From a virus (lineage: Duplodnaviria > Caudoviricetes): DNA of 26,416 bases. Below are positions 9,679 through 21,895 of this stretch, in pieces; positions within the stretch are counted from its first letter, which is position 1; each line of letters begins with the position of its first letter. Made by a program: the position numbers and the translations under genes. The notes beneath the pieces were generated by a model that saw nothing but the letters and a program-made list of their open reading frames with translations, made no database searches and was not told the origin of the DNA. The stretch lies in IMG/VR virus record IMGVR_UViG_3300038393_000621, positions 1-26,416 of that record, one strand, 5' to 3'.

Positions 9679-11568
9679 TCAAAGCAGGCACCCCGCTACT
9701 GACTTGATGGCTTCAGCGAAAGCGGAGCCGGCGTGATAATCGGCCTCAGCCTGAGCGAGAGTGGCGGCATCGTCCGGTGTCAAGCGGCCCTCGGCAGCGA
9801 GTTGCGCCACTTCGGCTTCCTCTGGGAAAGCACCGGTCGCAGGATCGACACTATGTTGGGCGGCAAGCGCCTTGACATCTTCCGGCTTGGCGATGGAAGC
9901 TTCGGCTTGCTTGAGTCCTTCCGGGCGCGGCTCTGGGGCTGGCTTGGTTGTATCGACAGCCACAGGCTGGTCATTCTTGCGGGCAATGCGCACCAGGTTC
10001 TGGTCAAAGACCACGATGTTATGCGAGCCGTCACCAGCATCGCGCGATGATGCGTCCAGATATTTGATGCCGGGGATGCCGGCATTCATGAGATCGGTCG
10101 CATGCGTATTGCCAAGGCCATATTCGACATATTCGCCGCCCGTCTTATTGGCAAACTGCTCGAAATTGGCATCGCCCATCTGCTTGCGGAGTGCATCCTG
10201 AACGAATGGAGACTGTTCAGAAAGGGGCTTATCCCAATCGAGCAGATGGTCTTTTGAAGCCCGGATGCGAACCTCGTAGAGATTTCCCGGCTGCGGCTGA
10301 GACAGAAACCGATGCGCATCGGCATACACAGGGTTGCGCATATTATCGACGCCCGGCGCGGCTGGCTCGAACTCCCGGTCAAGCTGCCTCAATGCTTTGG
10401 CGAAGTCGCCACCATTGGCGTCCAGAAGGTCGCGAACAATGCTCCCCGCCTGCGGGTTGTCGACAAGCATGGAATCGACGCCAAGCTTCTTCTGATAGCC
10501 CTTGGCAATGTCGGCATTCTCGGCGAAATACAGGCCACGACCATAAGCCTGAGCGCCCTCCCCAGAGCCGATATGCTCGGTAGCAAAGGCAGAAAAATCA
10601 TGCGGCGAACCATGATAGGCGGTGATCTCGTCCGCCACCCGCGCCAAAGGCTCCGTCGCATTAGGCGACAGATTGACATCCTCGCCCCGAACAATCGCAT
10701 CAATGCCCTCATTCAGGGCAATGCGGCTCTCCATGGTGGTCTGGAGAGTCGATAGGCGCTGTTCTGCCTCTGCCATGCGACGGGCGTCGATGCGCGCTCC
10801 TATGGCGCCGTGGATGGTCCCGAAGGCCGAACCAATAAGCCCTGCCGTTGCGATCTGCGAAATAAGCGCCTGCCACGAAACATCGTCGCCGAGTTGAGCA
10901 CGAGCATCGGCAGTACCAATCCCGAACAGAGCGGTGTTTGCTGCGGCATCCAAGCTGGCAGTTAGCGCCTCGCCGCCGATCCTGCCGAAGCGGCCAATCG
11001 CAGCCGCTTTGACCAGCGGCCCGCCGACCGGGACATAATTGATCGGATCAAGAGCCTGGCCCGCCATCGAGCCGAGAAAGGCAGCTATCGGTCGCTTCTG
11101 CGCATAGAACTCGCGCACCTTCTTGGCATCATCCATCGCAGCCAATGCGGCGGCCCGCGTCTCCGTCATGCCGGGATCGTAGGGAATATCCTTTCGAAAC
11201 GACGGGGACGCCCTGTATTGATCCTCCGTAAGCGCCCCTGCGTCCTGCCGGCGCTGTTCAAGCTGGGCCGGCGTATCGCCCCATGTGCCCATAAGCGCAT
11301 CACGCATGCCGACATTGGGCGGGGCATAGACATCACCAGTTCCGACAACGGCATTGCCGTTCTGATCGACGCCATCCTGGACCGGGGCTTCTTCCGGCAA
11401 GGCCCCACGGCGCAAGACAGTGCCGAGACCGAAGCTCTCCAGCGCACCGCCCTTGCCCTCCTCGAACAGCGTCGAAGTCAGGCTGAGCGGTTGGCTCATT
11501 GCCGAGTCCAGAAGATCAAACTTGGACAGCCCGCTATAGGTCGGGCCGCTCATCGAATAGACGCTCAC
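9679..11568 (-). CDS. Internal virion protein with ADP-ribosyltransferase-like (ART-PolyVal-type) domain
   Basis: DPINYVP and Gly/Ala-rich hydrophobic stretch; AYHGSPHDF..IGSGEGAQAYGRGLYFAEN..GNLYEV..GIPGIKYLD..NIVVFD. Confidence 0.75.
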   Translation of the reverse strand: MSVYSMSGPTYSGLSKFDLLDSAMSQPLSLTSTLFEEGKGGALESFGLGTVLRRGALPEEAPVQDGVDQNGNAVVGTGDVYAPPNVGMRDALMGTWGDTPAQLEQRRQDAGALTEDQYRASPSFRKDIPYDPGMTETRAAALAAMDDAKKVREFYAQKRPIAAFLGSMAGQALDPINYVPVGGPLVKAAAIGRFGRIGGEALTASLDAAANTALFGIGTADARAQLGDDVSWQALISQIATAGLIGSAFGTIHGAIGARIDARRMAEAEQRLSTLQTTMESRIALNEGIDAIVRGEDVNLSPNATEPLARVADEITAYHGSPHDFSAFATEHIGSGEGAQAYGRGLYFAENADIAKGYQKKLGVDSMLVDNPQAGSIVRDLLDANGGDFAKALRQLDREFEPAAPGVDNMRNPVYADAHRFLSQPQPGNLYEVRIRASKDHLLDWDKPLSEQSPFVQDALRKQMGDANFEQFANKTGGEYVEYGLGNTHATDLMNAGIPGIKYLDASSRDAGDGSHNIVVFDQNLVRIARKNDQPVAVDTTKPAPEPRPEGLKQAEASIAKPEDVKALAAQHSVDPATGAFPEEAEVAQLAAEGRLTPDDAATLAQAEADYHAGSAFAEAIKSVAGCLL

Positions 11569-18665: not shown

Positions 18666-19091
18666 TCAGGCTTCGCACTTCATGGTCACAACCTCACCGC
18701 CCGTACTATCATCCAGCAGTGCAGCTATCTCGACTGCCTTGGCTGCATCGGCGCCCATGTACATGGCGGCATTGGCCGCTGGAGACCCACTACCCCATGC
18801 GCCAAATTCAGTCGTGACATCGAAAGATGCGCCGGCCTCATAGATCGTGAGAGAGCCAGTCTTGCGCAGTCGAATGATCGTAGACTCCGAAAGCGAAGGT
18901 CTGTCGCCGCCTTCGCCATTTTGAAGCCAGCGGATGAAAGCCACCGCCTCAGCATAGGTGCCAGTGACGCCCGCAACGTCGCCGGATGGCAAACGGAAGA
19001 GTTTGCTGGCCGAATATCGATGTATCCAGCCGCCGTTCATCATCCGACTGTCGGCGGCCAGGATGCCCCCGCGATAGGCAATGGTTGTCAT
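18666..19091 (-). CDS. Proteasome-beta/HslV-like Ntn hydrolase, 141 aa
   Basis: MTTIAY..ILAADSR, SKLF, GSG, A..AM..GA.A..AVEIA..LD..TGG; ATGA-coupled start at 19091 exposes Thr1. Confidence 0.8.
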   Translation of the reverse strand: MTTIAYRGGILAADSRMMNGGWIHRYSASKLFRLPSGDVAGVTGTYAEAVAFIRWLQNGEGGDRPSLSESTIIRLRKTGSLTIYEAGASFDVTTEFGAWGSGSPAANAAMYMGADAAKAVEIAALLDDSTGGEVVTMKCEA

Positions 19092-19561
19092 GCCGAGAGG
19101 CCCGAAGCCTTCTGGGAATGCGCGATTGCAGCCGCTACAGCTTCGGCCCGCGTCTTGTGATCCTTGCTGACCACCAGATGCGGATCGTTCGTCATGGCAC
19201 GCCATTTGTGGGCCGGCGCGAAATTGACGGTGTAGCCTTCGGGAGGCTGAGGCGCGTCTTCCGGCAGTTCGCCTGTCTGCTCAATGACCGGCTTGACCGC
19301 GGTCTTCGTCAGATCGATCGCATGAAGGAGCGCCGTCTTGACCCAGCCTGTGCCGCGCTCCACAACAAGCAGATGCAGGCGCCAGGAGCGGTCTTCCGGC
19401 GTGACGATAACTTCGTCATCGACCGTGACCTTGGAAAAGATGTTGGCCCAATTGCCGGGGATGGAGACATCCTCCATGGTCATGGAGTTCGGAACCACCA
19501 TGCGCCGAAGCGTGCGGGTGTAATCAGCGCTGTTGAGCGCCGTCTGTGCGGGGATCTTCAT
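19088..19561 (-). CDS. Hypothetical phage protein, 157 aa
   Basis: GAGG RBS before ATG 19561 (MKIPAQ...); stop coupled to the next gene. Confidence 0.75.
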   Translation of the reverse strand: MKIPAQTALNSADYTRTLRRMVVPNSMTMEDVSIPGNWANIFSKVTVDDEVIVTPEDRSWRLHLLVVERGTGWVKTALLHAIDLTKTAVKPVIEQTGELPEDAPQPPEGYTVNFAPAHKWRAMTNDPHLVVSKDHKTRAEAVAAAIAHSQKASGLSA

Positions 19562-19939: not shown

Positions 19940-20776
19940 TTACGTGGCAACGAACGCCGAGCCGTCGTGAGTGATTTTCACGATGCCGGTGTTCTGGAGG
20001 ATTTTTGCTGCGTGGAAGACGGTGGCGCGAGACCAGGACGTGTCCTGCTTCTCATCGTACCCGATGGCGATCTTCTCCTCGCCAACGTTCACCGCATAGC
20101 CGATGGCGTCGCGGTGGAACATATAGCAGATTTCCGAAGAAGTGCCGAGGCCGGTGATGCGGCTGGAGACGGCCCAATTGATGCCCATCCAGCGGAACAT
20201 CTTGCGGGCCGGGCCACCGAACGGCTTGACATCCACGTAGTCGCCCGAAGCGAATTCGGTCGTCTGCATGAGATAGCCGCGAAACGCCGGGGAGATGACG
20301 GCGAACATGTTGTTCTCGTCTTCCACCGGAATGTCGGCATTGCCAAGGATCGCCTGGGCGCCGGTAACGGTTGCCAGGGAGGCAGTGCCGGTGCCGAAGT
20401 CCTGCGTGGCGTTCGCCAGTTCGGCCAGCATCGTGAGATCGATGTCGCGGTTGATGACCGCCATCGACGCATTCTGCATGACGCGCTTCTGGTCGCCCTG
20501 CGAGGCGAAAATGTTGAACCCGGTCAGCTCATACGGCGCATGCTTTTCAACAAGCGTCGCGGTAACCTGCGAGTTCGTGGGGTTGCCATACGGAATCTGG
20601 CCGTTGGTCCCACGGCTGACTGCGGTATCCGTACCGGAACCGGAAACGAGGAAGGTGGCCTGGTTGCCACTGATCACCGATTCCTTGGTCGTCATGGCCT
20701 TGAGCAGGCTCACGCGCTGCTCGAAAGCCCCGATGAACTCTTTCCGGTACTGGATCATTGCGGCTTCGATAGCCAT
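19940..20776 (-). CDS. Major capsid protein, 278 aa
   Basis: Y..EF..AFEQRVSLL, AVINRDID, WMGINW, FHRDAIG; position after the scaffold; GAAAGGAA RBS. Confidence 0.88.
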   Translation of the reverse strand: MAIEAAMIQYRKEFIGAFEQRVSLLKAMTTKESVISGNQATFLVSGSGTDTAVSRGTNGQIPYGNPTNSQVTATLVEKHAPYELTGFNIFASQGDQKRVMQNASMAVINRDIDLTMLAELANATQDFGTGTASLATVTGAQAILGNADIPVEDENNMFAVISPAFRGYLMQTTEFASGDYVDVKPFGGPARKMFRWMGINWAVSSRITGLGTSSEICYMFHRDAIGYAVNVGEEKIAIGYDEKQDTSWSRATVFHAAKILQNTGIVKITHDGSAFVAT

Positions 20777-20806
20777 GATCAGTTCCTTTCAGTGTTGAGG
20801 GGTTTT

Positions 20807-20944
20807 GGAGCCGCTGTCGTGCAGGGTGGCCGAAGGCGTTCCGGGGCCTTTGCAGGGGTGGCCGGTCGGCTTGTCGGGGCTTCACGTCATAGGCAGAAGG
20901 ATTGCTTTGCGCGGGGCCGTTTCCGGGGTGGCCGTGCAGGCAAT
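20807..20944 (-). repeat. Three-copy structured motif GGCCACCC..GGCYCC in the capsid leader
   Basis: Copies at 20913-20933, 20843-20863 and 20807-20831; inner stems CCG-GAAA-CGG, CCT-GCAA-AGG and CTG-CACGA-CAG. Confidence 0.75.
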
Positions 20945-20970
20945 AAAAAGGCCCGCCGAAGCGAGCTTTG
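20942..20970 (-). terminator. Rho-independent terminator between scaffold and capsid
   Basis: GCTCGC-TTCG-GCGGGC hairpin followed by CTTTTTATT. Confidence 0.75.
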
Positions 20971-20995
20971 TTCACTGACGGGCTGTCAGGAATTC

Positions 20996-21895
20996 CTACT
21001 TCTTGCGCTTCAACTCGCGCTCAAGGATCTGCGCGTACTCCTTGTCGAGACCCTTTTCATAATACTCATCGGTGCCGATGATCTTCTCGATCTCCTCCTT
21101 GCGCGCGGTGTGCTTGCGCTCGCTGTCGGAGGACGTGAAGGCCACATCGCCGAACTTCTCGCGGCCCATGTCGGCGGCCCATGCGATGAACTCGGGGATA
21201 TCACCAAGGCGCTTGCCATCCACGCGCGCCTCAGCCCACTTGGCGCCTACGCCGGGAATGCCCTCGATCCAGCGGCGGGCAATGGTGGTGTTGGCCTTGT
21301 ATTCGCCGTGCGCCCAATCCTTGCGAAGGGTGTCCTCCGCTTCTTCCGCAGCCACCTTGTCCGTCTCGGATTGCTTGGCCTGGAGCGTGTCCATCATGTC
21401 GATGTACCACTCGGAGGCGATCTCAACGACATCAGGCCGGGCGCCCTTGGCGTGGGCGAATTCGGTGAAGCTGGAGAGGATCGGCTTGTCCTCGTCGGTC
21501 AACCGCTTCTGGACTGCTTCCGGCAGTTTGTAGCCGGTCGGATCGTCCGGGATGCCTTCGGCCTTGCGCCATTCGGCCATCGCCTTTTCGTCTTTGCCGT
21601 CCGGCTTCGCTGGCCGCTGCTGGCCAGACCTGATTGTGGCCTGTGCCTCACGCAGAGCCCGCGCGACCCCCTTGGGTGAACCATAGCGAGAAATGGCCTT
21701 GGCGACATCATCGTCACCGCCAGCCATATCCTCGCGCCAGTTGTCGCCCCATGGGGATTTGGGTTCCGGCTTTGGGTCGGCGGGAGGCGGATCAGCCGGG
21801 CTGGGCTCAGGTGCCGGATCGGCCGGCTTCGGGTCGAGCGCTGGCGCAGGGTCCGGTACAGGGTTGGGGTTCGGCGCGTCTGCCAAGTCAGTCAT
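20996..21895 (-). CDS. Capsid scaffolding/assembly protein, 299 aa
   Basis: Pro/Asp-rich N-terminus, GIPDDPTGY, acidic helices, LRKDW..Y; lies directly upstream of the capsid. Confidence 0.75.
   Translation of the reverse strand: MTDLADAPNPNPVPDPAPALDPKPADPAPEPSPADPPPADPKPEPKSPWGDNWREDMAGGDDDVAKAISRYGSPKGVARALREAQATIRSGQQRPAKPDGKDEKAMAEWRKAEGIPDDPTGYKLPEAVQKRLTDEDKPILSSFTEFAHAKGARPDVVEIASEWYIDMMDTLQAKQSETDKVAAEEAEDTLRKDWAHGEYKANTTIARRWIEGIPGVGAKWAEARVDGKRLGDIPEFIAWAADMGREKFGDVAFTSSDSERKHTARKEEIEKIIGTDEYYEKGLDKEYAQILERELKRKK

Follow-up and report, generated by a model that had tools for sequence, protein, structure and literature searches.

The leader of the major capsid gene of a rhizobial podovirus carries three copies of a small internal loop, five nucleotides opposite two and embedded in a helix, and in related phages one letter of this loop varies together with a single residue of the scaffold-like protein encoded upstream, which very probably binds the loops directly. 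Our preferred reading, to which we assign a probability of about 0.47, is that the N-terminal domain of this protein binds the three loops and promotes capsid synthesis in step with the amount of free scaffold.

The capsid leader and its fold

The stretch of DNA analysed here, called the window, is a virus record of 26,416 bases, 52% complete. On its minus strand, the terminase and portal genes are followed by a weakly Bbp19-like gene, a gene for a scaffold-like protein of 299 aa, a gap of 219 nt (20777-20995, the length that had been read from the sequence alone) and a capsid gene of the PF19821 family; 3′ of the latter come a gene for an 88-aa protein and then the podovirus tail and core genes (Table 1). 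Elsewhere on the same strand, a virion protein with a short match to ART-PolyVal is encoded at 9679-11568, and an HslV-family peptidase lies within the head-tail block (18666-19205).

Table 1. Coordinates of the scaffold-like gene, the parts of the leader and the capsid gene in the window.
Feature	Position	Strand	Basis or remark
Scaffold-like protein, 299 aa	20996..21895	-	putative scaffold; phrog_3742; between portal/Bbp19-like genes and capsid gene
N-terminal three-helix domain, residues 52-92, predicted RNA reader	21620..21742	-	conservation, model, covariation
Tyr71 codon of scaffold-like protein	21683-21685	-	within N-terminal domain
Small hairpin directly 3′ of scaffold stop, 5′ of terminator	20975..20990	-	by eye
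Hairpin resembling an intrinsic terminator, with U tract, next to module 1	20942..20966	-	
Module-1 hairpin: loop CCACC opposite CC, GAAA tetraloop	20901..20944	-	fold and covariation
Long nested stem: basal helices and module 3	20810..20894	-	short strand 20875-20881 pairs long strand 20823-20832
Module-2 inner hairpin, GCAA tetraloop	20841..20865	-	covariation and parser
A/C-rich linker with Shine-Dalgarno-like GAAAGGA (20784-20790)	20784..20809	-	
Major capsid protein, 278 aa	19940..20776	-	PF19821, E 1e-25; phrog_3437, E 1.5e-47

The sequence-only reading had drawn three repeated units on the mRNA (minus) strand of this gap, each as a hairpin of its own. The three unit sequences are present where it placed them, and of the four copies of GGCCACCC in the window, where 1.38 are expected, three fall in the leader. 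The 5x2 loop common to units 1 and 2, their GNRA tetraloops and the exchange of a G-C for a U-A pair between them were confirmed in the sequence, and unit 1 as drawn was also the predicted fold, with stems that covary in 30 leaders (0.214 vs 0.068 in shuffles, 0/500; the basal helix was omitted from this test since MAFFT had left it out of register). It was at unit 3 that the drawing failed: as a local hairpin it showed no covariation (0.120 vs 0.122 shuffled, 266/500; 42 leaders, in the module-like register). In a nested fold, the long strand of the third copy pairs with AGCCCCG, 50 nt upstream, and so encloses unit 2. The covariation of this fold, measured in 42 leaders from the same clade as the window (0.263 vs 0.094 shuffled, 0/500), exceeded that of all slid controls, and both sides had changed in 11 of 19 pairs; the shuffle takes no account of kinship, and the sequences tested are those from which the structure had been derived.

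The leader is accordingly drawn, from sequence comparison, as a terminator-like hairpin, the module-1 hairpin, a long stem in which module 3 surrounds the module-2 hairpin, the A/C-rich linker and the Shine-Dalgarno sequence. The small hairpin at 20975..20990 (minus strand) has arms that differ in close relatives and yet still pair, as judged by eye. Folding energy of the leader is unremarkable (z about 0), and the local and nested folds are nearly equal in this phage (-36.8 vs -36.4 kcal/mol), so that the case for the motif rests on comparison; when unit 2 is folded alone, its inner stem is absent from the minimum free energy structure. The motif had not been recognised as belonging to a named family, and Rfam bore this out: no Rfam 15 family matched at its gathering score in the window or in 10 related loci, and the only match in the window at E<=10 was to rsmX, with 21.7 bits of the 56 needed, on the terminator.

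Conservation of the module in related phages

Searches with the capsid protein yielded 188 loci with a capsid start, comprising 101 distinct leaders. The close relatives of the capsid come from Mesorhizobium, Rhizobium and Neorhizobium genomes, and distant homologues of both the scaffold (27%) and the capsid (30%) are found in HTVC010P. The nested pair could be parsed in 96 of the 101 leaders, and a parser score of at least 24 was reached by 92 of them, compared with 12 of 306 shuffled controls and a single one of 101 reverse complements. On the mRNA strand 105 of 127 tetraloops are GNRA, vs 6 when the opposite strand is read. Module 2 is flipped in one clade, its short strand coming first in 26 of the 81 leaders that parsed cleanly; the module works in either orientation, and the conserved unit is therefore the loop in its helix and not a linear repeat. 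The last letter of the loop was C in all 281 loops, a position at which the parser favours C, and the short strand is mostly CC, CU or CG, A being rare. The terminator-like element, present in 38 of 53 unflipped leaders vs 1 of 30 flipped ones, is placed by this comparison outside the conserved core.

The modules are confined to one place. At 159 loci, 294 strict modules lie within 200 nt 5′ of the capsid AUG, and no other 100-nt bin between -2500 and +3300 holds more than 9. Modules are not enriched 5′ of the scaffold gene; in 47 of 83 loci there is an overlap of 4 or 8 nt between the start of this gene and the stop of the one upstream. Among 82 leaders, long strand 3 is found 42-64 nt 5′ of the capsid AUG, and the linker that follows has an A+C content of 71%. 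In 62 of these 82 leaders the capsid AUG is itself predicted to be paired (probability >0.5), often with the early coding region (20750-20782 of the window, minus strand), a count made without a shuffle comparison. Gaps of more than 290 nt between scaffold and capsid genes occur at 23 loci, of which 9 belong to the main set and 14 were held out; all 9 of the former parse, with the modules remaining near the capsid AUG, and in the latter the loop strands are kept near the AUG, as seen by eye. In L014 (1818-2303) the scaffold-capsid gap contains an inserted ORF that we take, by eye, to be HNH-like, and in one clade (L296:1397-1873, L299, L307) the gap holds an ORF on the opposite strand, presumably ModE-like, again labelled by eye.

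A blind scan with an 18-letter pattern gave 65 matching stretches of viral sequence, counted without dereplication; 40 of these sit 62-104 nt 5′ of a capsid gene of this phage's capsid family, and one further stretch was assigned by PHROGs to a capsid-gene leader of the same family. In L405 the pattern occurs 209 nt 5′ of a capsid gene that belongs to a different family (phrog_267), which may be chance. By eye, neither BPP-1, with its 13-nt gap, nor Hodr has such a leader. In HTVC010P (L088:5690-5895) a variant module, ACAAU opposite AC, was seen by eye together with AGAAC, and the residue at the reader position is Phe; this variant was missed by the nested parser. Contigs from RNA libraries of relatives span the leader and the capsid gene, and are uninformative on strand, ends and level.

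The sequence-only reading had called the repeats a cis-acting RNA element. Conservation, covariation, the flips of orientation and the concerted change of the copies, described below, all speak for this; what had to be given up was the three-hairpin anatomy, at unit 3.

Loop letters and a residue of the scaffold-like protein

The 299-aa protein is taken to be the scaffold because its position and its helical fold fit. Its model is helical (pLDDT 89.8), and a tblastn search matched a gene of HTVC024P annotated as ‘putative capsid assembly protein’ (27%, E 5e-3). The N-terminal domain was modelled as three helices (pLDDT 88.7), the second and third of which flank Arg70-Tyr71; it is present in 1563 clusters, and three of its residues are nearly invariant (W53 in 93/94, R54 in 94/94, R70 in 87/94). 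Fold searches with this domain gave a best Z of 3.1 and no Foldseek match at E<=0.001, and no Pfam family fits it. With the near-full scaffold (residues 44-299), there was no fold match in the PDB, and BFVD returned only unnamed phage proteins. A profile search with the domain found no match in BPP-1, Hodr or HTVC010P, and the miss in HTVC010P makes that search uninformative.

Within a leader, a change at loop letter 4 or 3 is shared by the copies, and this has happened on independent branches; letter 2 does not behave in this way. Such concerted change on independent branches points to a reader encoded by the phage itself, and not to conversion between the copies. Hand correction of the loops in 16 leaders, and the removal of two leaders, preceded any look at the protein columns. 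In 88 scaffolds, Tyr at residue 71 goes with C at loop letter 4 in 60 of 60 cases and Phe with A in 23 of 25. Among 791 columns from five neighbouring proteins, residue 71 was the best predictor of letter 4, followed by scaffold residues 80, 81 and 69, all in the same N-terminal domain, and none of 150 simulated traits matched the fit of residue 71 on any column. With independent pairs drawn on a tree built without the N-terminal domain, the count was 7.8 to 0 (n=8, p about 0.008); on a capsid-only tree, with only 5 usable pairs, it was 4.8 to 0 (p 0.06).

The rule recurred in loci outside the main set. With automatic calls at held-out loci, Tyr was paired with C in 9 of 9 cases and Phe, Ile or Val with A in 29 of 29, besides one Met with C; 23 of the 62 domains in this set were uncalled, and many of the Phe-A cases are close kin. 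The loci found by the pattern scan included 18 with the domain, and after four seen before, one duplicate and two with tandem domains were left out, the rule held in all 11 new single-domain cases. Exceptions are Phe with C in L053, Phe with U in L190 and, by eye, Tyr with A loops in L331 and probably L289, both of which are among the held-out uncalled domains. In two scaffolds (L382 and L414) the N-terminal domain is duplicated in tandem, Tyr being found in one copy and Phe in the other; in L414, it is the complete copy that combines Tyr with A, and the Phe copy is partial. In L286 the domain is present, with Ile at the reader position, and the capsid leader is without a clear module. Of the other letters, letter 1 was set aside because it tracks the clade split and fits many columns. 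A candidate partner for letter 3 (Gln85 to Lys/Arg) was not significant (p 0.5) and was rejected, leaving this letter with no clean residue partner.

The link between letter 4 and residue 71 makes it likely that the loops are bound by the scaffold. The suggestion that the repeats are a protein-binding site therefore appears sound, with the binder narrowed to the scaffold-like protein; its other candidates fared worse, the columns of the capsid and of the 88-aa protein tracking the loop less well.

Proposed control of capsid synthesis, alternatives and known systems

In the proposed mechanism, the three-helix domain would bind the three copies of the helix-embedded 5x2 loop in the capsid leader, and the bound scaffold would promote capsid synthesis, either by protecting the mRNA or by helping to load ribosomes, with no refolding of the ribosome site along the way. 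The capsid made would then soak up free scaffold through the C-terminal tail of the latter, closing a feedback loop. Given binding, a positive effect has slightly better than even chances, a judgement drawn from the logic of assembly. As the modules are found only on the capsid leader, self-repression through the module is unavailable. For the last step, a complex prediction of the C-terminal 52 aa of the scaffold with the capsid scored 0.46 against 0.00 for the best control; the runs agreed in at least 87% of contacts, and the partner pLDDT was at least 72. The same mark is reached by 116 of 157 solved pairs and 2 of 215 mismatched ones, and at scores of <=0.60 it takes in 18 of the solved pairs and both of the mismatched. 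This model weakly suggests that the scaffold tail docks on the capsid. More broadly, it is conceivable, at somewhat less than even odds, that the scaffold is a sequence-specific RNA-binding activator of capsid synthesis, its three-helix domain and the internal loop it reads both being uncatalogued, with a code of one residue to one base (Tyr-C, Phe-A) that extends from rhizobial prophages to ocean phages of the HTVC010P type.

Access to the ribosome site was followed by prediction in 82 leaders. With the modules forced, the opening energy of the Shine-Dalgarno sequence was unchanged (median 3.36 vs 3.30 kcal/mol), opening being easier in 12 leaders and harder in 9, and the mean probability of its pairing with the module regions was 0.01-0.10. 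All the evidence for scaffold binding would also fit if the loops served to tether or titrate scaffold near the ribosomes that make capsid, there to catch nascent chains and nucleate procapsids; three sites at a fixed spacing outside the ribosome site, with access to that site unchanged, also suit this possibility, which we regard as unlikely, though it is, with repression, one of the main rivals. Should the bound scaffold repress capsid translation, it would act as a P22-like repressor on the next gene, for which the autoregulation of the P22 scaffold is a precedent, and a complex of some bulk, bound 35-60 nt upstream, could get in the way of ribosome standby. The modules, however, lie outside the ribosome footprint, and a capsid level lowered by excess scaffold would presumably worsen the imbalance, so that repression seems improbable.

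That no protein is involved, the element being a stabiliser, a processing signal or a tertiary module, is harder to uphold. The scaffold gene is adjacent to the leader, which would allow the Tyr/Phe link to arise by hitch-hiking of neighbouring DNA, and a terminator-like hairpin with its U tract abuts module 1. Against hitch-hiking, the signal resides in one domain about 750 nt away and not in the nearer C-terminal columns, survives in trees built without that domain and recurs in the held-out sets, which leaves this explanation a small chance. Smaller still is the chance of a two-state switch, in which an unbound module strand would hide the Shine-Dalgarno sequence or form the local unit-3 hairpin until binding frees it. 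The near-equal energies of the local and nested folds in this phage would permit it, and opening of the 25-nt initiation region becomes easier in 28 of the 82 leaders, as against 16 in which it becomes harder; the local hairpin, however, does not covary, and with Shine-Dalgarno opening unchanged and its pairing with module strands rare, a switch at the ribosome site is unsupported.

Coat feedback is common in phages, and the capsid and 88-aa genes are the downstream neighbours of the leader; a binder other than the scaffold (one of these two proteins or a host factor) is nevertheless very improbable, because the best column of the 88-aa protein leaves 13/24 errors for letter 4 vs 4/25 for residue 71, no capsid column is among the top seven, and a host factor fits poorly with concerted change that is specific to the phage. 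It is equally improbable that a transcription regulator recognises the repeats as DNA, as the threefold 9-bp direct repeat and the small, helical reader domain might suggest, given the compensatory pairs, the strand-specific GNRA loops, the permuted orientation and the single parse of the other strand among 101.

The loop invites comparison with the C-loop, in which a 3-nt long strand faces a short strand with a conserved A. Both are small, C-rich, asymmetric internal loops in a helix and free of orientation. Assignment to the C-loop was nonetheless rejected: the loop here is 5x2, its short strand rarely contains A, let alone a conserved one, and the letters of its long strand vary with a protein residue.

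Structured RNAs have been described before major-capsid genes, among them GP20-a (RF02991), GP20-b (RF03003) and csRNAs (Fremin et al. 2023, PMC10690425). Like the present motif, these are structured RNAs predicted to act in cis upstream of phage structural genes; at least two of the six Phage_capsid entries given there concern HK97-type capsids, and the motif described here differs in having no Rfam match. Overlap with one of the 10,006 csRNAs of that work may exist, as the motif is set apart from them by descriptions and not by alignments. A literature search by title and start of abstract found nothing on the motif, which may nevertheless be listed without comment in the supplements of three motif surveys (PMC10690425, PMC5737381 and PMC11109978); the main texts of the latter two contain neither ‘capsid’ nor ‘scaffold’. 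A preprint (bioRxiv 10.64898/2026.07.01.735769) appears unrelated to the motif.

For the scaffold, the closest system known is that of P22, in which free scaffold represses and coat relieves the repression. No P22 protein (gp8) appeared in the PDB sequence or fold searches, an absence that does not exclude homology. Translational autoregulation of the P22 scaffold was reportedly established in 1985, by Casjens and Adams and by Wyckoff and Casjens. In the passage devoted to this autoregulation in bioRxiv 10.1101/2022.12.13.520362, it is the N-terminus of the scaffold that acts post-transcriptionally on head-gene expression, and here covariation points to an N-terminal segment, residues 52-92, as the predicted binder. 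The P22 scaffold targets its own leader, with a site in its own initiation region, whereas here the target would be the capsid leader, and the scaffold gene, which mostly overlaps the upstream gene, has no module. As the own-leader feature is absent, the present system is not classed as P22-type autoregulation.

To our knowledge, the understanding of scaffold/capsid balance in tailed phages rests on the 1985 work on P22, and we know of no defined RNA site there. In contrast to P22, the present case offers an RNA loop that is both defined and repeated, along with a rule relating residue to base, and what is new is this RNA site together with a candidate reader of 40 residues. Tyr71Phe against C-to-A provides a reciprocal pair of mutations for direct recognition, and so tiny a protein-RNA pair with natural specificity variants could serve as a tool. 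Set beside the P22 scaffold, the arrangement suggests cross-control of the capsid gene, beyond self-repression alone.
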